Source of the DNA: Chloroflexota bacterium
GTDB lineage: Bacteria > Chloroflexota > Limnocylindria > Limnocylindrales > CSP1-4
Direction of reading: 5' to 3'
Length of the DNA: 64,000 nt
Assembly (NCBI GenBank): GCA_042408535.1
Contig: JBHORA010000076.1
Span: 624 to 64,623 of the forward strand
The notes below the pieces were generated by a model. It did no database searches, was not told the DNA's origin, and worked only from the letters and a program-made list of their open reading frames with translations. The translations under genes were made by a program, and so were the position numbers. Below are positions 7,455 to 49,590 of the stretch, piece after piece (within the stretch, counting starts at the first letter, position 1; each line of letters begins with the position of its first letter).

Positions 7455-8096
7455 GTGACGGGCCAGTTCTCCGGGCGATCCCTCGCTGAACGCTCCCGCC
7501 GCCGGCGAGAGCGGATCCTCGACGCGGCTGCCCACGTCTTCGGCCGGGCCGGCTACCGCGACGCCGCCGTCGACGACATCGCTCGCGAGGCGGAGACGAG
7601 CAAGGGTGGGATCTACTTCCACTTCCCGACGAAGGAGTCGATCTTCATCGAGCTCATCCGCTCGACGGCCGATCGACTCCTGGCGAAGGTCGAACGCGAG
7701 GTGGCCCGCGAGAGCGACCCGGTCCTTCAGGCCGACGCGGCGATCCACACCGTCCTTCGGACCTTCGCCGGCCACCGCTCGATGGCCCGTCTCCTCCTCG
7801 TCGACGCCCTCGGCGCGGGGCGACCGTTCCGAGCCGAGCTCCTCCGCCTCCACGAACGGTTCGGTGACCTCATCGCCGGCTACCTCGAGCGGGCGGTCGC
7901 CGACGGGGTCATCGCGCCCCTTGACACGAGGGTCGCCGGGGCGGCCTGGTTCGGGGCGATCCACGAAGTCGTCCTCCGCTGGCTCGTCGCTGATCGGCCA
8001 CCGCCTCTCGAGACCGCCTACCCAACCCTCCGTCTCGTCCTGTTGCGGAGCGTCGGCGTGCCCGAGGAACGGCTGGCGCAGCTGCCGGACCGATGA
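7455..8096 (+). CDS. TetR-family transcriptional regulator
   Basis: N-terminal TetR HTH (RERILDAAAHVFGRAGYRDAAVDDIAREAETSKGGIYFHFPTKESIF). GTG 7455 chosen as the first plausible start in the 7284..8096 frame. Stop overlaps the menF ATG (ATGA at 8093-8096). Confidence 0.85.
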   Translation: MTGQFSGRSLAERSRRRRERILDAAAHVFGRAGYRDAAVDDIAREAETSKGGIYFHFPTKESIFIELIRSTADRLLAKVEREVARESDPVLQADAAIHTVLRTFAGHRSMARLLLVDALGAGRPFRAELLRLHERFGDLIAGYLERAVADGVIAPLDTRVAGAAWFGAIHEVVLRWLVADRPPPLETAYPTLRLVLLRSVGVPEERLAQLPDR

Positions 8097-9793
8097 ACGA
8101 CCGCAAGCGCCTCGGGGCTGCCGTCGTCGAGAAGCCGGGCCTCTTCGCCGACGGGGCACCGGCCGAGCCTGGCCCCAGGGAGCCGACCGTCGCGGACGGA
8201 GGACGGACCGACGGCGGTGACGGCTTCGGGGCGAACGTCGCCTCGATCCTGGGGCCTGAACGCGGAGCCCGTCCCGGAGGTACGAGGGGGCCGATCCTCC
8301 CGGCCGAACTCGACGCCGACCTGGTGGCCGAGCTGACCACCCTCCACCGGCAGGCGCCCTCGGCCCGGCTCGTCGTCGCCTCCCTGCCGATCGATGAGGT
8401 CGACCCGATCGAGCTCGTCCGGGCTGCCCTCGCCGCCCGCGAGAGCGTCGCTCTCTGGTCCCAGCCGGCTGGCCAGACGATCGTCGGCATCGGCGCGGCG
8501 ATGGAGATCGCCCTCGAGGGCCCGGATCGGTTCAACGACGCCGCCCGGGCCTGGCGCGCCGTCGCTGCCGACACCGTCGTCGGAGGATCGGCGGCGGCCT
8601 CACCCGGAGCGTGGCCGATTCTCCTCGGCGGGGCCACCTTCGCGCCGACCCCTTCGAAGGATCCCCGCTGGCGGGGCTTCGAGACGGGCTGGCTCCGCCT
8701 CCCACGCCTCATCGTCCGCTCGACCGATGGCGGTTGGTCCGCCGGGGCGTCGATCCTCATCGACGACCCATCGGCGGTCGAGGTGGCCATCGTCGGGCTT
8801 CATGACCTGCTCCGACGGCTCGTGTCCGGTGGGCCGGATGCTCGGCCGCGGGGGACGGCCGAGGCGGCGGAGGCGGCCCTGCCCCTCCTCCGGCGAGCCG
8901 GCGGGCAGCCCGACAGGCGGGCCTGGGAGGCCGCCGTCGCCCGGGCAGCCGGGGCGGTGAGCCGGGGGAGGATCGACAAGCTCGTCCTCGCCCGACGGAT
9001 CGACGTCGCGGCGAGCGATCCGTTCGACGTTCCGGCGACGCTCCGGAGGCTCGCCGCGGTGGCTTCGAGGGCGACGATCTTCGCCTTCAGCCCGACCGAG
9101 GCTCCCGAGCGCGTGTTCATCGGCGCCTCGCCGGAGCGGCTCGTCGAGGTGCGGGGCCGCGCGTTCCGGACGATCGCCCTCGCCGGAACGATCGGCCGGG
9201 GGCGCGACCCCGAGGAGGACGATCGGCTGGCGGCGACGCTCCTCGCCTCGGAGAAGGATCGCGAAGAGCACGCCATCGTCGTGGCGATGCTCCGCTCAAC
9301 CCTCGAGCCCCTCGCCGAGCGACTCGACGTGGGCCGGAGCCCCGAGGTCGTCCGACTTCGGACGGTCCAGCACCTGGCGACGCCGATCGCCGGTCGGCTC
9401 CGGGACGGGGAGGGGATCCTCGGCCTCGTCGGGCGTCTCCATCCGACGCCGGCCGTCGGGGGCTGGCCGCGGGAGGCGGCCCTTGCCCTCCTCGCTGAGG
9501 AGGAGCGCCTCGACCGCGGCTGGTACGCAGGCCCGATTGGCTGGGTCGGTGCCGACGGCGACGGAGAGTTCGTCGTCGGGATCCGGTCGGGGGTCGTGGA
9601 CGGCGACCGGGCGAGCCTCTTCGCCGGCTGCGGGATCGTCGCCGATTCGGAGCCCGAGCGGGAGTGGGAGGAATCCGAGCTGAAGCTGGCGGCCCTGGCC
9701 GAAGCCCTCGGGCGGTTCGATGGCGGGGAACGGGTGGACCGTGAGGAACGGTTCGACCGTGGGGAACGGTCCGAAGGCGAGGAGATTCCATGA
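8093..9793 (+). CDS. menF: Isochorismate synthase
   Basis: Chorismate-binding domain (GIRSGVVDGDRASLFAGCGIVADSEPEREWEESELK). Sits in a men operon. C-terminal tail is built from an 18-bp tandem repeat. True start may be downstream of 8093. Confidence 0.85.
   Translation: MNDRKRLGAAVVEKPGLFADGAPAEPGPREPTVADGGRTDGGDGFGANVASILGPERGARPGGTRGPILPAELDADLVAELTTLHRQAPSARLVVASLPIDEVDPIELVRAALAARESVALWSQPAGQTIVGIGAAMEIALEGPDRFNDAARAWRAVAADTVVGGSAAASPGAWPILLGGATFAPTPSKDPRWRGFETGWLRLPRLIVRSTDGGWSAGASILIDDPSAVEVAIVGLHDLLRRLVSGGPDARPRGTAEAAEAALPLLRRAGGQPDRRAWEAAVARAAGAVSRGRIDKLVLARRIDVAASDPFDVPATLRRLAAVASRATIFAFSPTEAPERVFIGASPERLVEVRGRAFRTIALAGTIGRGRDPEEDDRLAATLLASEKDREEHAIVVAMLRSTLEPLAERLDVGRSPEVVRLRTVQHLATPIAGRLRDGEGILGLVGRLHPTPAVGGWPREAALALLAEEERLDRGWYAGPIGWVGADGDGEFVVGIRSGVVDGDRASLFAGCGIVADSEPEREWEESELKLAALAEALGRFDGGERVDREERFDRGERSEGEEIP
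9725..9778 (+). repeat. 18-bp in-frame tandem repeat x3 at the menF 3' end
   Basis: GGGGAACGGGTGGACCGT / GAGGAACGGTTCGACCGT / GGGGAACGGTCCGAAGGC, encoding GERVDR-EERFDR-GERSEG. Confidence 0.85.
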
Positions 9794-11637
9794 CGGGCGG
9801 GACACCGGCCGAGCCTCTTCGAGCCTTCGCCGAAGCCCTCGTCGGGGCCGGGGTCCGGGAGGCGGTCGTCTGCCCGGGCTCCCGCTCGACCCCGCTTGCC
9901 CTCGCCCTCCGGCTCCAGCCGGCTCTCCGGGTCCTCGTCCACCTCGACGAGCGCGCCGCCGGCTACTTCGGGCTCGGGTTGGCGCGCGCGGTTCGGCGCC
10001 CGGTCGTCCTGCTCGCCACCTCCGGGACAGCCGCGGCGAACTTCGGGCCGGCGGTCGTCGAGGCCCGCCACGGACGGGTCCCGCTTGTCGTCGTGAGCGC
10101 CGATCGGCCTCCGGAGCTTCGGGACCGGGGTGCGAACCAGACGATCGACCAGATCCACCTCTTCGGACGCCAGGTGAAGTGGTTCGTCGAGCTGCCGGTC
10201 CCGGAGGCCGACCCGCTCGCCGAGGCCCACGTCCGGTGGGTCGCCGCTCGAGCCGTGGCGACGGCCGCCGCTCCGCCAGCCGGGCCGGTCCACGTCAACT
10301 GGCCCTTCCGCGAGCCCCTCGTCCCGACGGGGCGTCTCGTCCCGACGGGGCGCCTCGCCGCCGACGAGCTGGCCGAGCCGCACACCCGAGTCGTCGAGGG
10401 GGTGACCCTGCCCGACGAGGCCAGCCTTCGCGAGCTTTCAGATCGCCTGCGGGCCGCCGAACGGCCGCTCGTCGTCTGCGGGCCGATCGACCGCCCGGGC
10501 TTCGCAGAGGTCCTCGTCGACCTCGCCGCCGTCCTCGGGGCCCCGGTCGTCGCCGACGGGCTGGCGAACCTGCGGACAGGGCGCCACCGGCGCGAGAACG
10601 TCATCGCCCACGCCGATCTCGTCCTTCGGTCGGCGGTGGTCCGGGCGGCCCTTCGGCCCGACCTCGTCCTCCGCTTCGGCGGCACGTCAACCTCGAAGAC
10701 CGTCCTCGGCTACCTGACCGAAACGGCGGCGGAGCAGATCGTCGTCGACGACGGCGGCTGGAACGAGCCGACGCTCCTGCCGGGGACGATCGTCCACGCC
10801 GATCCGGTGGCTTTCGCTGGGGCCCTCGGCGAGGCGAGCGGCTCGGCGATGGGGCCGGCTCGCCACCCCGGCTGGCTGGATCGCTGGCGGGAGCTCGACC
10901 GTCGGGCGGCCGCGGCCGTCGGGGCGACCGTTGGCGACCTGGGCGAGGCCTTCGAAGGGGAGGTCTTCGTCGGCCTCGCCGACCGGCTCCCGGAGGGAAC
11001 GATCGTCTACGTCGGGAACTCGATGCCGGTTCGGGATCTTGATGCCTATCTTTCGGGCGGGCCGCGGTCGATCCGCTGGCTCGGCAACCGCGGGGCGAGC
11101 GGGATCGACGGGGTCGTCTCCTCCGCCCTCGGAGCGGCGGCGGGCGGCGATCCCGTCCTCGCCGTCGTCGGGGATCTCTCCTTCCTCCACGATCTCAACG
11201 CCATCGCGACGGCGCCCCTCGACGGCCTGCGGGCGACGATCGTCGTCGTCGACAACGACGGCGGCGGGATCTTCTCGTTCCTGCCCCAGGCGACGACGGA
11301 GCGCCCGGAGGTTGGGCTGCCGGCCCACTTCGAGGAGCTCTTCGGGACGCCCCACGGCGTCGACCTCCTCGGGGTCGCTCGAGCCCTCGGGGCCGAGACC
11401 GAGGAGCTCGTTCCCGGGCGGGTCGGCGAGGCGGTCGCCCGGGCCGTCGCGGCGAGTCTCGAGCGGCCGGCGATCCGGGTCCTTCGGCTGCGGACGGACC
11501 GGACCCGGAACGTCGAGCTCCACCGGCGGATCGCGGATGCGGTGCGGCTGGCGGTCGAGGGGGCCCTGGTCGGGGCGGAGGGATCGCCGCGCGGTGTCGC
11601 CGAGGTGGGTTCCTCTCGTCCATACAGCAAGCAGTGA
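9790..11637 (+). CDS. menD: 2-succinyl-5-enolpyruvyl-6-hydroxy-3-cyclohexene-1-carboxylate (SEPHCHC) synthase
   Basis: 615-aa ThDP enzyme with a MenD-type N-terminus ([28 protein letters not shown]) and a ThDP-binding [10 protein letters not shown] region. ATGA overlap with menF. Confidence 0.9.
10318..10359 (+). repeat. 18-bp in-frame tandem duplication inside menD
   Basis: CTCGTCCCGACGGGGCGT then CTCGTCCCGACGGGGCGC then CTCGCC, encoding [14 protein letters not shown]. Confidence 0.9.
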
Positions 11638-12482
11638 AGGTGCGGTCGATGACAGACGAACGCCAGGTTCGCTGGACGGCGGTCCAGACCTACGAGGACA
11701 TCCGCTACGAGCACTCCGGCACCGGAATCGCCAAGATCACCATCAACCGGCCGGAGGTCCACAACGCCTTCCGGCCGAAGACGGTGCGCGAGCTCATCGA
11801 CGCCTTCCGGCGGGTCCGAGACGACGCCTCGATCGGGGTCGTCCTCTTCACCGGAGCGGGAGAGCAGGCCTTCTGTTCGGGCGGCGATCAGCGTTACAAG
11901 ACGATCGCCGGCTACGCCGACGAGGACGGGATCGCCCGTCTCAACGTCCTCGACCTCCAGCGGCTCATCCGGAGCCTGCCCATTCCGGTCATCGCCCTCG
12001 TGAACGGCTACGCCATCGGGGGCGGGCACGTCCTCCACGTCATCTGCGACCTGACGATCGCCGCCGAGAACGCCATCTTCGGCCAGACGGGTCCGAAGGT
12101 CGGCTCCTTCGACGCCGGCTACGGGGCGACGATGCTGGCCCGGATCGTCGGTCACAAGAAGGCCCGCGAGATCTGGTACCTCTGCCGCCAGTACACGGCC
12201 AGGGAGGCGCTCGAGATGGGGCTCGTCAACGCCGTCGTTCCCCTCGCCGAGCTCGAAGCCGAGGGGATCCGGTGGGCGAACGAGATCCTCGAGAAGAGCC
12301 CGACGGCGATCCGCTTCCTCAAGCGGGCCTTCAACGCCGACGTCGACGGGCTCGCCGGTCTCCAGGAGCTGGCCGGCGACGCCACGATGCTCTTCTACAT
12401 GACCGAAGAATCCCACGAGGGGAGTCGGGCCTTCCTCGAGAAGCGACGGCCCGACTTCTCGAAGTTCCCGCGGCGGCCGTGA
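11634..12482 (+). CDS. menB: 1,4-dihydroxy-2-naphthoyl-CoA synthase
   Basis: Crotonase fold with a MenB signature ([37 protein letters not shown]). GTGA overlap with menD; an alternative ATG lies at 11649. Confidence 0.93.
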
Positions 12483-13399
12483 CGACGGGGGCCGAGGGGG
12501 CCGGGCGCCCGGGCAAGCTCGCCGCCTGGCGGCTCGCCATCCGGCTGCCGACCCTCCCGGCTGCCGTCGGTCCGGTCCTCGTCGGCCTCGGGGTTGGTCT
12601 CGGGGAGGGCGTCTTCCGGCCGGTCCCGGCACTCCTCTGCCTCGTCGTCGCCGTCCTCCTCCAGGTGGCAGCGAACCTGGCGAACGATCTCTTCGATTTC
12701 CGACGGGGGGCCGACACGGCCGATCGGCTCGGCCCGCCCCGGGCGGCGGCCCTCGGCCTCTTGACCGAGCGAGAGCTCCTCGTCGGGACGGGGGTCGTGC
12801 TCGCGGCCGCTGCTGGGGCCGGCCTGGGGCTCGTCGCCATCGGCGGGCCGTTGCTCGCCGCCCTCGGCATTGCCGCGATCGTCGCCACCCTCGCCTACAC
12901 GGGTGGGCCGTTCCCGTACGGCTACCGGGGTCTCGGCGAGGTCTTCGTCTTCGTCTTCTTCGGGCTCGTGGCGGTTGCCGGGACGGCGTACCTCCAACTC
13001 GGTTCCTGGCCATGGTTGGGGTTCGCGGCGGCGGTCCCGGTCGGCTGCCTCGTGACGGCGATCCTCGTCGTGAACAACCTCCGTGACGTCGAGGCGGACG
13101 CTCGGGCGGGGAAGGTGACCCTCGCGGTCCGCTTCGGGGCGTCCTTCGCGCGGGCCGAGTACGTGGCTCTCTGGGTCGTCGCCTTCGTGGTTTCGGTAGG
13201 GCTGGTCGTCGGCGGTGCGGTGGGCTGGCCGGGGCTCCTGCCGCTCCTCGTCGTGCCGCTCGGCTGGCGGCTCGTGCGGGCCGTCCTCGATTTCCGTGAT
13301 CCGCGGCAACTCAACCCGGTACTGCGCCGAACGGCCCAGGCTCAGCTCGTGTTCTCATCCCTCCTCGCCCTCGGGTTGGCGCTCGGTGGTGGCGGGTGA
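12479..13399 (+). CDS. menA: 1,4-dihydroxy-2-naphthoate polyprenyltransferase
   Basis: Last 306 codons of track ORF 10931..13399. UbiA-superfamily membrane protein ([34 protein letters not shown]). GTGA overlap with menB. Confidence 0.9.
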
Positions 13400-13430: not shown

Positions 13431-13807
13431 GTGACACGGTCGGCGAGCAGAACGGGCCTCCGCGCGTTCGCTGTGGCGGCCGTGCCAGTGTCAGCGAACA
13501 AAACGCGCGTCGTCGGGGTGCCCGCTTTCGCGGTGATGCTCTCAGCGAACATGACGGCCCTCGTCCGGGCGCGCGCATTCGCGGTGACGCTCTCAGCGAA
13601 CAAAACGGGCGTTCGGGACGCGCCTGGTCGCGTTCTGTTCGGCCACGGTGTCATAGGAGCGAGCGCCGAGGCCGGGACCGGGGTTCTGTTCGGCCAGGGC
13701 GTCATCCCGGGCGCGGCGGGCGGCAAAACCCGCGTTCTGTTCGCTCGGCGTGTCAACCGAGGGCGTTCGGCGGTCCGGACCGACGTTCCGTTCGGCCTGC
13801 GTGTCAC
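13431..13807. repeat. Phased array of a 23-bp motif: 4 direct copies then 4 inverted copies, 51-bp register
   Basis: Direct copies start at 13431, 13482, 13533, 13584. Inverted copies occupy 13632-13654, 13683-13705, 13734-13756, 13785-13807. Consensus about GTGACaC-N6-7-GCGAACAGAAC. The 28-bp spacers are not conserved. Mirror centre is near 13619. Confidence 0.9.
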
Positions 13808-13844
13808 CGTCAGGGGCCCGGATCCGGGCTGAGGTGCGAGAGCG

Positions 13845-15077
13845 GTGGCCACCATCGTCGACGTCCGGCTGGAGCCGGTTCGCCTGCCCTTCCGCGTTCC
13901 GGTGCGGCTCGGTCCCGACCAGGCGGAGGCCCGAGACCTCCTCCTCGTCGGCGTCGCCAGCGACGAGGGGCCGGCGGGCTGGGGCGAGGTCGTCGCCCTG
14001 GCGCCGATGCGGGACCTCGTCGCGCTCGCCCGGGATCTCCGGGAAGCCCTCCTCCGGCGGCCCGTCGATCCGGGCGCGGAGGGTCTTGAAGCCGGAGGGA
14101 CGCGTGGTGACCGGGGGCCGCATGGCGATCGACGGCCGCACGGCGACCGAGGGCCGCACGGTGACCTGCGCCGGACCGCGTCGTCGGTGACCGCATTCGG
14201 GGACCCAGTGGGGCTCGCCGGCGAGGGCCCGGCCGGGCGGGCCGTCCGGGCCGGGTTCGAGACCGCCCTCCTCGATCTCGTCGGGCGTCTCGCCGGCCGC
14301 CCCCTGGCCGCCCTCTTGGCCGAGTCCGTCCGGGGCGCCGTTCCCGTGAACGGGTTCGTCGACGCGACGGGCCTCGCCCCGGCGGCCGTCGCCGACCGCT
14401 GCCGCGCCATCACCGAGACGGGGATCCGGACGCTGAAGCTGAAGGCGGATCCTCGCCTCGACCGCACCCTCCGTGTTCTCCGTGCCGTGCGAGCTGCCGT
14501 CGGCCCCGACGTCGCCCTCCGGCTCGACCTCAACGGACTGCTCCCGCAAGCCGAGGCGGCGGACTGGCTTCGGGCCCTCGGGTGGGCTGAGCTCGAGTAC
14601 GTCGAGCAGCCGATCGCGCCCGAGGAAGGTCCCGAGGCCCTGGCCAGGCTCCGCCGAACCTCCCCTGTCCCCATCGCCGCCGACGAAGCCGTCACCGACG
14701 CGGACGCGGCCGAGGTCCTTCTCGCCGCCGGCGCCTGCGACGTCCTCGTCGTCAAGCCGAGCCGGGTCGGCGGGCCCCGGGCGGCCCGGGCCATCGCCGC
14801 TGCGGCGGCCGAGCGGGGGATCGACGTCGTCGTATCGACCCTCTACGAGACCGGCATCGGCCTGACGGCCGCCCTCCAGGTCGCGGCCACCCTCCCGGGC
14901 GGGCGAGCCCACGGCCTGGCCACCCTCGAGCTCCTCGCCGACGACCTCATCGAGGAGGGTCCCGACGTGCGCGACGGAGCGATCGCCCTGCCGTCGGGAC
15001 CCGGCCTCGGTGTCGGTGTCGACACGGCGGCCGTCGCTCGATACCGCACCGGTGGGGCCGACGAGGAGGGGCCATGA
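13845..15077 (+). CDS. menC: o-succinylbenzoate synthase (enolase superfamily, MR/MLE type)
   Basis: 410-aa ORF with a GTG start. Enolase-superfamily barrel (LKLKADP, LRLDLNG, YVEQP, IAADEA, VKPSRVGG). Operon context. Carries an 18-bp tandem repeat insert (GDRGPHGDRRPHGDRGPHGD). Confidence 0.85.
   Translation: MATIVDVRLEPVRLPFRVPVRLGPDQAEARDLLLVGVASDEGPAGWGEVVALAPMRDLVALARDLREALLRRPVDPGAEGLEAGGTRGDRGPHGDRRPHGDRGPHGDLRRTASSVTAFGDPVGLAGEGPAGRAVRAGFETALLDLVGRLAGRPLAALLAESVRGAVPVNGFVDATGLAPAAVADRCRAITETGIRTLKLKADPRLDRTLRVLRAVRAAVGPDVALRLDLNGLLPQAEAADWLRALGWAELEYVEQPIAPEEGPEALARLRRTSPVPIAADEAVTDADAAEVLLAAGACDVLVVKPSRVGGPRAARAIAAAAAERGIDVVVSTLYETGIGLTAALQVAATLPGGRAHGLATLELLADDLIEEGPDVRDGAIALPSGPGLGVGVDTAAVARYRTGGADEEGP
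14106..14170 (+). repeat. 18-bp in-frame tandem repeat x3.5 inside menC
   Basis: GGTGACCGGGGGCCGCAT / GGCGATCGACGGCCGCAC / GGCGACCGAGGGCCGCAC / GGTGACCTG..., encoding GDRGPH-GDRRPH-GDRGPH-GD. Confidence 0.9.
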
Positions 15078-17587
15078 GCGAGGACGTCCGTGGCGGCGGA
15101 GCGGCCGTCCGACGCCCCGATCCGCTCCTCGTGGCCGCCCGCCGCTGGCCCACCCGAACGGCCCTCCTCGCCGGCGAGGAACGGATCGACTACCGAAGCC
15201 TCGCTGCCCGGGCGGCGGCCGCCGCCGATGCCCTCCGACGGCTCGGGGTCGAGCCCGGCCACCGCGTCGCCCTCCTCGCCGCCGACAGGGCCGAGACCAT
15301 CGTCCTCATCCACGCCGTGCGGCTCGCGGGGGCCGTCCTCGTTCCCCTCCAGCGGCGGGCTCCGGCCCCCGAACTCGAGCCCCTCGTCCGGCGGGTGCGG
15401 CCGATCCTTCTCGTCCACGACGCGACGACGGCACCCGTCGCCTCGGCCGTGGCTGCGGCGACGGCGATTCGCCTCGTCGACTGGCGCGCCCTCGAGACGG
15501 CGGTCGACGGAGGCGGGCCCGCTCGCCTACCGGCGTCGCCGAGGCTAGTCCTCGACCGCCCGGGCGCCATCCTCTTCACCTCGGGCACGACGGGTCTCCC
15601 CAGGGCCGTTCTCCTCAGCCATCGGGCCCTGATCGCCAGCGCCCACGCCTGGAACGCCTTCCTCGAGCCTCGGGCCGACGACCGATGGCTGGCGACGCTC
15701 CCGCTCGCCCACGTGGCCGGGCTCGGGATCGTCCTTCGGGCGACCCTCGCCGGGCTGTCGATCGTCCTCCACGAGCGCTTCGACCCGACCGCGGTTCTCC
15801 GCGACCTGGCACGGGCGAAGGTCAGCCACGTCTCTCTCGTGCCGACCCAGTTGGAGCGGCTCCTCGAGGCGGCCGGTCCGGGCCCGATCGCCGCACCGGC
15901 CCTCCGAGCGGTCCTCCTCGGCGGGGCGCCGATCCCGCCCGATCTCGTTCGACGGGCCTTGGGGCGGGGATTGCCGATCGTCCCCACCTACGGGTGCACC
16001 GAAGCCGCCTCCGGCGTCACCGCCCTCCCGGTGGCCGAGGCTGCCGCCTTCCCGGGGTCGAGCGGCCGGCCCCTGCCGGGCCTCCGGCTCCGCATCCTCC
16101 GCGACGACGGCGCCGAGGCGCGTCCCGGCGAGGTCGGCGAGATCGTCGTCACCGGGCCGACCCTCTTCGACGGCTACGTCGACGACCCCGAGGCCACCGC
16201 CCGGGTCCTCCGCGGCGGCTGGTTCCACAGCGGCGACCTCGGCAGCCTCGATGTCGACGGGCGGCTCGTCGTCGCTGAACGACGGATCGATCGGATCATC
16301 TCGGGTGGGGAGAACGTCTCGCCGACCGAGGTCGAGCTCGTCCTCGCCGCCCACCCCGAGGTCGCCGAGGTCGTCGTCGTCGGCCGTCGCGACCCGATGT
16401 GGGGGAGCGTCCCCGTCGCCGCGGTCACCCTCCGGCCGGGGAGCCGCCTGGCCGAGGCGCCCGCGGAGACGGTCGAGGCCGAGCTCGTCGCCTTCGCCCG
16501 AGAGCGCCTGGCTCCCTTCAAGGTGCCGAAGCGGATCGTCCGACTCGACGCGATCCCCCGGACCGGGTCGGGCAAGGTCCGCCGTCCCCTCGTCGCCGAG
16601 CTCATCGAGCGGGCCGAGGCGACCAGCAGAACCGGGGCGGGCCGCGCCTCAGGGGCGGGCTCGTCCGGCGGCCGGGTCAGCGGAGGAGGGCCTGGCCCGT
16701 TGGTGGTCGGCGAAGTCACGATCGTCGAGGTCCTCCGACCCGACGGGGCGATCGTCCTCGTTCGACAGTGGGGCAGCGGGCCGCTCCTCCTGCTCCTCCA
16801 CGCCACCCTCTCGAGGGCGGCCGACTACGACGCCCTCGCCGTGCGCCTCGCGACCGACTTCACCGTCCTCGCCGTCGACCGGCGCTCGGCCGGGGCCAGC
16901 CGGGAACGAAGCCAGGCAAACCGCTCGGGGCGAACCGCCGATCGCGACGCCCTCGAGCCCATCGATGTCGGCGTGCACGTCGAGGACCTCGTCGCCGTCC
17001 TGGAGGCCGTCGCCGAGGGCGCGGGCGGGGATGCCGCGGCACACGTGCCGCCGGCCCTCGTCGTCGGGCACTCCTTCGGGGGCGTCGTCGGGCTCGAACT
17101 CGCCGCCCGGCGGCCCGACCTCGTGGCCGGTCTCTGGCTCTTCGAGCCCCCGTACGTGGCCGCCGCTCCGGCGGCCGTTCGGCGGGCCATGGCCGAGATC
17201 GGCGACCGCCTCCGGGCAATCGCTGTTCGCGACGGCATCGAAGCCGCGGGTCCGGCCTTCCTGGCGGCCGTGGCGGGCGTGGATCCGTCCGAGCTGTCCG
17301 AGGGAGCGAGGCGGCGAGCGGCAGCAGAGGCGCGTTCGGCCCTCGCCGATGCCGCCCTCCGGGGGCTCGACCTGGCCGGTCTTCGTCGGATCGCGGCTCC
17401 CGTCACCATCGCCCTCGGTGAGCGGAGCCCGTCCTGGTATCGAGCGACGGCGAAGGGGCTGGCACGGCGCATCGCTGGGGCGACACTCGTGACGCTCCCC
17501 GGCCTCGACCACCTCGGCCCGCTCAGGGCTCCCGGCCTCGTCGCCGAGGCGATCACGGACTGGGTCGCGAGGCTCCGTGCGAGCTGA
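15074..17587 (+). CDS. menE: o-succinylbenzoate-CoA ligase fused to a C-terminal alpha/beta-hydrolase domain (candidate MenH)
   Basis: N-terminal ~510 aa is an adenylate-forming ligase (ILFTSGTTGLPRAV, YGCTEA, GWFHSGDLG, PRTGSGKVRR). A Gly/Ser linker follows, then ~300 aa with the nucleophile elbow GHSFGG and a distal LDHLGP. ATGA overlap with menC. Confidence 0.85.
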   Translation: MSEDVRGGGAAVRRPDPLLVAARRWPTRTALLAGEERIDYRSLAARAAAAADALRRLGVEPGHRVALLAADRAETIVLIHAVRLAGAVLVPLQRRAPAPELEPLVRRVRPILLVHDATTAPVASAVAAATAIRLVDWRALETAVDGGGPARLPASPRLVLDRPGAILFTSGTTGLPRAVLLSHRALIASAHAWNAFLEPRADDRWLATLPLAHVAGLGIVLRATLAGLSIVLHERFDPTAVLRDLARAKVSHVSLVPTQLERLLEAAGPGPIAAPALRAVLLGGAPIPPDLVRRALGRGLPIVPTYGCTEAASGVTALPVAEAAAFPGSSGRPLPGLRLRILRDDGAEARPGEVGEIVVTGPTLFDGYVDDPEATARVLRGGWFHSGDLGSLDVDGRLVVAERRIDRIISGGENVSPTEVELVLAAHPEVAEVVVVGRRDPMWGSVPVAAVTLRPGSRLAEAPAETVEAELVAFARERLAPFKVPKRIVRLDAIPRTGSGKVRRPLVAELIERAEATSRTGAGRASGAGSSGGRVSGGGPGPLVVGEVTIVEVLRPDGAIVLVRQWGSGPLLLLLHATLSRAADYDALAVRLATDFTVLAVDRRSAGASRERSQANRSGRTADRDALEPIDVGVHVEDLVAVLEAVAEGAGGDAAAHVPPALVVGHSFGGVVGLELAARRPDLVAGLWLFEPPYVAAAPAAVRRAMAEIGDRLRAIAVRDGIEAAGPAFLAAVAGVDPSELSEGARRRAAAEARSALADAALRGLDLAGLRRIAAPVTIALGERSPSWYRATAKGLARRIAGATLVTLPGLDHLGPLRAPGLVAEAITDWVARLRAS

Positions 17588-35854: not shown

Positions 35855-36834
<980 letters not shown>

Positions 36835-49232: not shown

Positions 49233-49590
49233 CGCCAGCGAGGCGATCGGACGGTCGCGCGCTCGCTCCCTGAAAAGGGGCGGAGCGTGAGGAAAGTCCG
49301 AGCTCCCCAGCGCAGGGTGGCGGGTAACGCCCGTCCGCCGTGAGGCGAGGACGAGTGCCACAGTGACGATGCCGGCCTCTCGGCCGGAGTGAAACGCGGC
49401 AAACTCCACCCGGAGCAAGGCCAAGTAGGAGGGCGCAACCCGGTGCCCCAGCACCGGGGGACGAGGTCGCGCTGCCCAGCCCTCGGGTCGGCCGCTCGAG
49501 CCGTCGGGTAACCGGCGGCCTAGATGGATGACCGTCGCCGCACCGTGGGGTGCGGTACAGAACTCGGCTTACAGATCGCGCTCGCTGGCG
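49233..49590 (+). ncRNA. rnpB: RNase P RNA, bacterial type A
   Basis: Universal elements GAGGAAAGTCCG (49289-49300), GGGTAACGCC, AGTGCCACAG, GTGAAAC...AAACTCCACC, CCTAGATGGATGAC and ACAGAACTCGGCTTAC. P1 pairing: 49233-49242 with 49581-49590. A T-run follows. Confidence 0.95.

Follow-up and report, generated by a model that had tools for sequence, protein, structure and literature searches.

The stretch of DNA analysed here, referred to below as the window, comprises 64,000 nucleotides of a Chloroflexota bacterium (contig JBHORA010000076.1 of GenBank assembly GCA_042408535.1; lineage Limnocylindria, Limnocylindrales, CSP1-4) and has a GC content of 72%. It carries a menaquinone (men) operon in which, as judged from Pfam matches and the coordinates of open reading frames (ORFs), tetR (ending at 8096), menF (8093-9793), menD (9790-11637), menB (11634-12482) and menA (UbiA prenyltransferase; gene model 12479-13399, + strand; Pfam PF01040, E = 2e-35) are followed by menC (MR_MLE enolase superfamily; gene model 13845-15077, + strand; Pfam PF13378, E = 6e-52) and by a fusion of menE with a hydrolase (15074-17587). 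The sole interruption of this operon is a gap of 445 bp between menA and menC, all remaining junctions being overlaps of 4 nt, and the gap holds an array of eight short repeats set out in two opposed blocks of four. We report that the array is a copy of a dispersed non-coding repeat of Limnocylindria-like high-GC Chloroflexota, and not a control device of the men operon.

Results

An array of two opposed arms between menA and menC

Cores of the form TGAC-N8-CGAACAGAAC can be read on the + strand from positions 13431, 13482, 13533 and 13584, and their reverse complements occupy 13632-13654, 13683-13705, 13734-13756 and 13785-13807. The left arm runs from its outermost unit F1 (GTGACACGGTCGGCGAGCAGAAC, 13431-13453, one mismatch to the pattern) through F2 (GTGCCAGTGTCAGCGAACAAAAC, 13482-13504, 51 bp past F1, two mismatches) and F3 (GTGATGCTCTCAGCGAACATGAC, 13533-13555, three mismatches and the weakest copy) to the innermost F4 (GTGACGCTCTCAGCGAACAAAAC, 13584-13606, one mismatch). 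The right arm, on the − strand, begins with its innermost unit R1 (GTTCTGTTCGGCCACGGTGTCAT on the top strand, 13632-13654) and continues through R2 (GTTCTGTTCGGCCAGGGCGTCAT, 13683-13705) and R3 (GTTCTGTTCGCTCGGCGTGTCAA, 13734-13756), all three without mismatches, to the outermost R4 (GTTCCGTTCGGCCTGCGTGTCAC, 13785-13807, one mismatch); R2, R3 and R4 have orthologous units in the array of a relative (locus L158) described below. A repeat search and Tandem Repeats Finder (period 51) both give a core-to-core register of exactly 51 bp within each half, and the halves face each other across a 25-bp centre (13607-13631, midpoint 13619). The menA stop codon (13397-13399) lies 31 bp ahead of F1. On the other side menC starts with GTG, and GAGG at 13831-13834, 10 nt upstream, may be its own ribosome-binding site.

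With up to three mismatches, TGAC-N8-CGAACAGAAC has 12 matches in the 64 kb, compared with 3.45 ± 2.0 in shuffled sequences, and eight of the 12 fall inside the 377 bp of the array (mismatches 1, 2, 3, 1, 0, 0, 0, 1). Similarly, the 10-mer core with at most one mismatch is found 10 times in the window against 2.5 expected, seven of these matches being in the array. The former scan revealed no second cluster of the motif anywhere in the 64-kb window. An initial annotation of the window, made from the sequence alone, had listed the eight copies, their exact spacing, the mirror point near 13619 and their position in the only gap of an otherwise overlapping operon; each of these observations was borne out. 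It had not seen the motif elsewhere in the window by eye, and the array is indeed its only cluster there.

The repeat is dispersed in related genomes and metagenomes

In a scan that took a single genome from each species, we looked for pairs of cores with a spacing of about 51 bp; most matches were due to chance, and the taxonomic breadth given here is a lower bound. Among the matches listed, true arrays are present on at least 12 contigs of the Chloroflexota metagenome-assembled genome (MAG) DAOTYQ01 (isolate H27_376) and on one contig of Chloroflexota KatS3mg065 (BPIH01). A complete scan of metagenome contigs yielded about 30 further arrays, all on contigs with a GC fraction of 0.70-0.76. 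Clustering of the flanking proteins resolves at least 22 distinct array loci, with most of the arrays deriving from a single population at species level. Among viral contigs and plasmids there was no real match to the array. Dispersal of the motif and absence of the array from close relatives had both been named beforehand, in the initial annotation, as observations that would speak against a special device of the men operon, and both were found.

All arrays are intergenic. Their neighbours are unrelated, encoding P-type ATPase, rhodanese, PEP carboxylase, ABC transporters, LigD/Ku, polyphosphate kinase, SSB, LeuRS and others, and no dedicated neighbouring gene or regulon emerged among the array-flanking genes. 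At the 15 loci where both neighbours are visible, seven junctions are co-directional, six convergent and two divergent; the arrays of the window and of loci L058, L016 and L152 lie between co-directional genes.

Local array density can be high. A contig of 13.7 kb (L137) bears two separate arrays, at 761-1129 and 13623-13692, and in the L054/L156 region neighbouring arrays flank a P-type ATPase gene plus one further gene. At another locus (L125) a second tandem repeat, unrelated to the array and with a unit of about 45 bp (GAGGTGGACAGCGACAAGGTCCG...), is found just beyond the left arm, some 100 bp away. Repeats in Litchfieldia (L001, 4324-4708), an Acidobacteriaceae MAG (L027, 6342-6606) and a Phycisphaerales MAG (L076, 865-1094) were considered as family members and rejected, being plain repeats in one orientation; they have a period of 49-52 bp and contain CGAACAGAAC by coincidence.

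Transposase genes lie close to two arrays, an ISNCY transposase at 85 bp (L120, 3089-4411) and an IS256 transposase at 77 bp (L008, 6952-7998), both outside the arrays. They look like insertion sequences that landed near the repeats rather than a dedicated partner, and such elements may land beside arrays by preference or because they are tolerated there. At about 80 array ends we found no shared leader, tail, terminus or target-site duplication, the outer units fading into locus-specific sequence. Forty-two array-flanking proteins gave no Pfam match to a RAYT-type (Y1) transposase. In the limited sample of arrays with both sides visible the arms always abut, and no autonomous relative bearing a transposase was seen.

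Arms, modules and the conserved core

Every array consists of a direct (F) block followed by an inverted (R) block with a period of 51 bp, and in none is the order reversed. The search pattern asked for no more than a pair of adjacent cores; that there are two arms, in this order and with a centre of fixed length, is therefore a finding and not an artefact of the search. The offset between the arms is 46 in most arrays, and 45 or 47 in three; the 25-bp centre accordingly has a length that is fixed in almost all arrays, while an alignment of 27 centres shows its sequence to be free. The numbers of modules range from 1+5 to 7+5 across the DAOTYQ01 and BPIH01 arrays that were read, and there is no cargo between the arms of any array of the metagenome set or of the DAOTYQ01 and BPIH01 contigs.

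The initial annotation had taken the motif to be 23 bp long. Its copies stand, but the unit is longer: in 97 units from 14 arrays the conserved part, in R orientation, reads C-GTTCTGTTCG-SY-CAS-GGCGAC-RCG-NCG-RGC, about 30 nt, and is followed by about 21 free nt. The alignment around the 27 centres places the invariant bases in two patches about 12 bp apart (G.C, 8 nt, CGAACA). Between loci, conservation is confined to a bipartite core of about 24-30 bp (G-T/A-C, 8 nt, CGAACAGAAC plus a few bases), with an identity of 77% against 28% expected from composition, a figure inflated by the selection of units on their core score; the tails are 35% identical, compared with 33% expected. Across 411 kb of related high-GC sequence there are, apart from the arrays, essentially no solo copies of the motif such as ordinary operator sites would be.

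The two arms are made of unlike units. In 26 of 29 arrays (19 of 22 loci) one arm has TTCGGCCAGG-type cores and the other TTCGCCCACG-type cores, and in the variable middle a unit is 82% like its arm-mates, 67% like the units of the opposite arm and 69% like those of other arrays. The array in the window conforms to this pattern, its left arm being C-type (TTCGC.. in R orientation, as in F4) and its right arm G-type (TTCGGCC, as in R1). The window and its nearest relatives have GTC(A) in the core where other arrays have GAC; this variant (G-T-G-A-C / GTC(A), not CGTCGCC / GAC) is common to the window, L158 and L168 (1901-1946 in the latter).

Presence and absence at the menA-menC junction

An exact look-up of the window's MenA gave no encoding contig. 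A search for MenA homologues recovered relatives at 79-82% identity and a wide shell at 60-71%, several of the latter labelled Candidatus Limnocylindrales, which would put the window in that class or near it. Besides the window (4+4), complete arrays stand at the menA-menC junction in L158 (3+3), L165 (3+3), L166 (4+2) and L058 (7+5), and in L168 and L169 the array is cut by the end of the contig. Other close relatives, whose operons are otherwise identical, lack it: menA and menC are separated by 12 bp in L164 and L159 and by 64 bp in L160/L161, where a GTCGCC...GACGCG stretch is a possible remnant, and in the outgroups L162 and L167 the two genes share an ATGA overlap. In a neighbour-joining tree of MenA the empty lineages are nested among array-bearing ones, and the simplest history would be a single gain once the outgroups had branched off, with two later losses; the tree is home-made and built from a single protein, and is weak evidence. 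The 64-bp spacer of the array-less L160 (4934-4997) contains GTCGCC...GACGCGCGACC, its flanking sequence is common to the array-bearing loci of the same clade, and it resembles what would be left if an array were deleted and its outer ends joined. Empty sites at this junction are too diverged from the filled ones to be aligned with them.

Where the array is present it evolves by whole modules. The DAOTYQ01 locus L058 is syntenic with the operon of the window (71-81% nucleotide identity) and carries 7F+5R at the same junction. The arrays of the window and of L158 align end to end with two clean 51-bp indels, L158 lacking, relative to the window, one module in the region of the F2 spacer and F3 and also the R1 unit; outside the indels the arrays are about 85% identical, compared with 87-90% in the flanking genes. 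In L058 and L166 MenA is 97% identical, and the arrays are 7+5 and 4+2. In orthologous arrays of diverged species the core has changed at 9.4% of positions versus 16% elsewhere (p = 0.005). The initial annotation had asked whether motif and phase are kept in related genomes while the spacers drift; the core is kept better than the rest, and the array itself is patchy among the relatives.

The same turnover is seen at other loci, where orthologous arrays flanked by proteins of 95-100% identity often differ in module number: 6F+5R versus 1F+5R (L138 and L017), 7F+2R versus 3F+3R (L131 and L115), 4F+5R versus 1F+5R (L145 and L054), and 3F+5R versus 2F+3R (L109 and L124). Three orthologous pairs have equal numbers. 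Adjacent units are often duplicated together with their spacers, giving a super-period of 102 bp in L015 and identical neighbours in L058, which points to slippage or unequal recombination and not to polar addition. Since module number varies between near-identical strains, the arrays could serve as strain markers; many metagenome contigs end within arrays, the assemblies being broken there.

Other features of the window and of related operons

The fusion of menE to an alpha/beta-hydrolase (menH-like) domain seen in the window (15074-17587) is shared by L159, L160, L162 and L167, and the outgroup L162 has an extra, separate hydrolase gene between menD and menB. Elsewhere in the window a 15-bp tandem repeat (TCGACCCGACGAGGA, 6.9 copies, 95% match) at 36266-36369 may be an in-gene pentapeptide repeat, and a bacterial class A RNase P RNA (Rfam RF00010, 186.7 bits) is encoded on the + strand at 49239-49588, which confirms that the window is bacterial.

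Discussion

We propose, with a probability of about 0.68, that the array is a member of a lineage-specific interspersed repeat whose core is read by a protein as DNA, whose arms change in length by slippage, and which is a passenger in the men operon. Nearly every locus has the same pair of unlike arms, which suggests that the arrays descend from copies of the whole element and did not originate independently. The spacers are randomised while the bipartite core is kept, and it is kept equally in both arms whatever the direction of transcription; both observations argue for sequence-specific reading of the core, most simply by a protein on double-stranded DNA. Iteron-like loading of a protein, one of the roles suggested in the initial annotation, is still the most plausible way in which such reading would occur; it cannot be specific to the men operon. 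As the operon of close relatives evidently works without the array, the latter is best regarded as a tolerated passenger.

According to this proposal, a copy of the array would have entered the menA-menC junction in the ancestor of the clade and split the ATGA stop/start overlap. The insertion would have uncoupled the translation of menA and menC, leaving menC with a GTG start and possibly with a ribosome-binding site of its own. From then on the arms would have grown and shrunk by whole 51-bp modules, with replication slippage or unequal recombination as the most likely cause, and two lineages would later have lost the array. The core might be read by a DNA-binding protein of the host, or by a recombinase or transposase through which the element spreads.

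Several points weigh against this interpretation. At the arrays we found neither a binding protein nor a transposase partner, and saw no target-site duplication and no terminal inverted repeats other than the modules themselves; for that reason we only infer mobility and protein recognition. The arrays with which that of the window was compared come from other genomes and not from its own, and the GTC(A) variant of the core, carried by the window, L158, L168 and part of the clade, is known from the men locus only. The identity of the core between loci is subject to the selection mentioned above. Furthermore, the one-gain history implies that the array was kept across a clade in which MenA identity falls to about 70-77%, which could mean that it is useful to the host, and the excess of convergent junctions (6 of 15, against a background of 10-13%; p = 0.002-0.01) also fits a host role at gene ends.

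These last two points also speak for the arrays being cis elements selected by the host, in which protein-bound cores form a symmetric roadblock, insulator or bidirectional terminator at the ends of genes; the array in the men operon would then set the ratio of menA-side to menC-side expression. Such a role would account for conserved cores among random spacers, and for the opposed arms, which present the motif in the same order of senses to transcripts arriving from either side. We nevertheless consider it unlikely. Three close relatives and all outgroups have the operon without the array, module number differs between near-identical strains, which would be odd for a tuned regulator, arrays are also found 5′ of genes and between divergent genes, and the flanking genes have no common function. 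One site was flagged when the module was considered as a small intrinsic terminator (a hairpin followed by GUUCUGUUCG), but over 147 units the stability of hairpins hardly varies with position in the 51-bp module (−8.8 to −11.1 kcal/mol whatever the phase), so that none is placed in phase ahead of the U-rich core. The number of terminator-like sites does not rise above background, and no cluster of promoters or terminators was found in the array, in line with the initial annotation, which had not seen a simple terminator here. Action as RNA is a good deal less probable still. In the form suggested by the initial annotation, F4 would pair with R1, F3 with R2 and so on, making a rod that is cut or that stabilizes the halves of the operon; alternatively, single-stranded RNA could be a platform for an RNA-binding protein. 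The predicted fold of lowest energy does bring the two arms together as a whole, pairing through shared cores amounts to 79.6% in the innermost units of 27 arrays, and REP and BIME repeats (repetitive extragenic palindromes and bacterial interspersed mosaic elements) are known to act at the level of mRNA (PMC3733652). Yet the fold of the 445-nt gap (−229.1 kcal/mol) is no better than that of shuffled sequences (−231.8 ± 6.5; z = +0.41), 68 of 100 of which are as good, and shuffled innermost units pair at a mean of 81.2%, with 481 of 500 shuffles at least as high as the real ones. Covariation between the innermost units of the 27 arrays was not detected, the score being below that of shuffled sequences, and the arms are unlike at variable positions and unequal in number (7+5, 7+2, 1+5). 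The array has no match in Rfam, the only match in the window at gathering score being the RNase P RNA 35 kb away, and three array-bearing loci compared with Rfam at E up to 1 gave one weak, unrelated match. Folding and covariation, which the initial annotation had put forward as a check, thus gave no signal for a rod, and both the rod and a central hairpin were rejected on fold energy and pair counts.

We regard it as very improbable that the region encodes a repeat protein, even though one frame (13431-13832, with VLFGxGVI... repeats) runs through the entire array without a stop codon, the period of 51 bp is divisible by three (51 = 3 × 17, giving a 17-residue repeat) and GC content by codon phase is weakly gene-like. 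Open frames are to be expected at 72% GC. Codon-phase entropy is against coding, since the variability of the array has no three-base periodicity, the would-be third codon position is the least variable of all, and spacer composition is not periodic either. The codon-usage score of the frame is 16 over 120 codons, against 127-259 in the neighbouring genes, and ORFs over arrays in general score 16-23 against 120-400 for real genes; the gene finder was home-made and trained on the window, where it recovered every men stop and matched all but one of the starts. The ORF (133 residues) has no Pfam match and no homologue among 5.8 billion protein sequences, and reverse-complement arms are inexplicable by a single protein. 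As the initial annotation had it, the array is not a gene. It is hardly credible that the array is of a degenerate CRISPR-like kind, or that it is the iteron set belonging to a replication origin or a partition (parC-like) site. The geometry, repeats of about 23-30 bp with variable spacers of about 21-28 bp, is superficially that of CRISPR, and direct repeats in phase resemble iterons. The repeats are degenerate, however, spacers are duplicated with their units, orientation flips in every array, and orthologous arrays differ by internal indels rather than by additions at one end. Among the annotated or predicted genes that flank the arrays we found no cas, rep or par gene, and the gene tables of men loci contain no cas domains; the absence of cas genes, together with the degeneracy and the flip, had already led the initial annotation to dismiss CRISPR, rightly in our view. 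Against an origin or a partition site stand at least 22 chromosomal loci per lineage with unrelated neighbours, and no match in plasmids.

The results remove the tempting reading of the array as a special regulator in a menaquinone operon, and document a repeat family of unusual and strictly kept design from a Chloroflexota class that is uncultured. They also pose the question of which protein reads a bipartite core that is conserved amid randomised surroundings. A dedicated binding protein or a transposition mechanism, if found, would add a new architecture to the few among bacterial interspersed repeats. It is conceivable, although we would bet against it, that the arrays represent an undescribed class of protein-read prokaryotic cis elements, either the first foldback-type mobile element of bacteria or a host marker of gene ends (an insulator or roadblock) in Limnocylindria. 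If so, module number would be a fast-evolving dial.

Comparison with known repeat elements

Our search of the literature found no description of such elements in Chloroflexota; the comparison below is with repeats of other organisms. Those closest to the role suggested in the initial annotation are REP and BIME. REP units are hairpins themselves, those of the CGTC type having a stem of 8-9 bp and a loop of 4-5 nt, and in BIMEs the units alternate in orientation, head-to-tail pairs of REPs being negligible; GTAG- and CGTC-tagged super-families have been described, as have REP and BIME clusters of Enterobacteria and Pseudomonas (Di Nocera et al. 2013, PMC3733652). Like these, the arrays are made of short conserved units at many intergenic sites, often in operons or downstream of genes, and form clusters of variable number in which partners of opposite orientation are usually unlike ('heterodimers'). 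The units of the relatives' arrays begin with CGTC or TGTC, which resembles the CGTC tag of REPs, although these tag-like bases do not stand beside a stem; those of the window begin with GTGAC, ATGAC or TTGAC. Unlike REPs, the units have no conserved hairpin, the half-sites GTCGCC and GGCGAAC pairing only in some variants, and the arrays consist of long head-to-tail blocks with a single tail-to-tail meeting in place of the alternation of BIMEs. Membership among the CGTC REPs was rejected for want of the stem-loop. Of the three roles suggested in the initial annotation, the REP/BIME-like one is the one that the evidence supports, in its dispersed and lineage-specific character (at least 22 unrelated loci, with patchy presence at menA-menC); formal membership does not stand, because the units are not hairpins.

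Mycobacterial interspersed repetitive units (MIRUs) are reportedly tandem repeats of about 51-77 bp. Their arrays have one orientation and contain small frames whose stop and start codons overlap the flanking genes. The two kinds share tandem units in the intergenic gaps of operons, MIRUs being present at dozens of loci, and unit numbers that vary between strains, as in variable-number tandem repeats. The arrays described here differ in having two opposed arms and in belonging to a different phylum (the comparison is by description, not by sequence), and their frame at 13431-13832, unlike those of MIRUs, neither starts at the menA stop nor reaches the start of menC, falling 12 nt short of it. 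Among modular repeats that resemble MITEs (miniature inverted-repeat transposable elements), BrickBuilt elements of Porphyromonas gingivalis have 23-nt modules without spacers in one orientation, with a fixed leader and tail and small inverted ends (PMC4596501). In contrast, our arrays have no leader or tail, the element consisting of two opposed blocks of modules only. Like BrickBuilt and the pneumococcal BOX, which is built of distinct A, B and C modules, they are strictly intergenic and restricted in species, with about 20 copies per genome and a variable number of modules that differs between strains.

The arms bring to mind the foldback (FB) transposons of eukaryotes, some copies of which carry a transposase and make target-site duplications, neither of which was seen for the arrays. 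In both, inverted arms of variable length are built of tandem sub-repeats, and many copies are arms only; the fixed 25-bp centre and the heterotypic arms are features of the arrays and not of FB, which is eukaryotic. Finally, the NIME clusters of Neisseria are composed of 50-150 bp segments of repeat families bounded by inverted dRS3 copies. They and the arrays alike form large clusters between genes, in which variable segments take turns with a conserved repeat of about 20 bp and alongside which insertion sequences land (and, for NIME, also phages), the cases for the arrays being the ISNCY and IS256 elements at 77-85 bp. NIMEs, unlike the arrays, have neither the fixed 51-bp register nor the polarity of two blocks; the dRS3 and NIME elements are also mentioned alongside the REP families (PMC3733652). 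The arrays share some traits with each of these kinds of repeat, and what sets them apart from all of these is the combination of head-to-tail 51-bp modules, two opposed and unlike arms, and a fixed centre of 25 bp.

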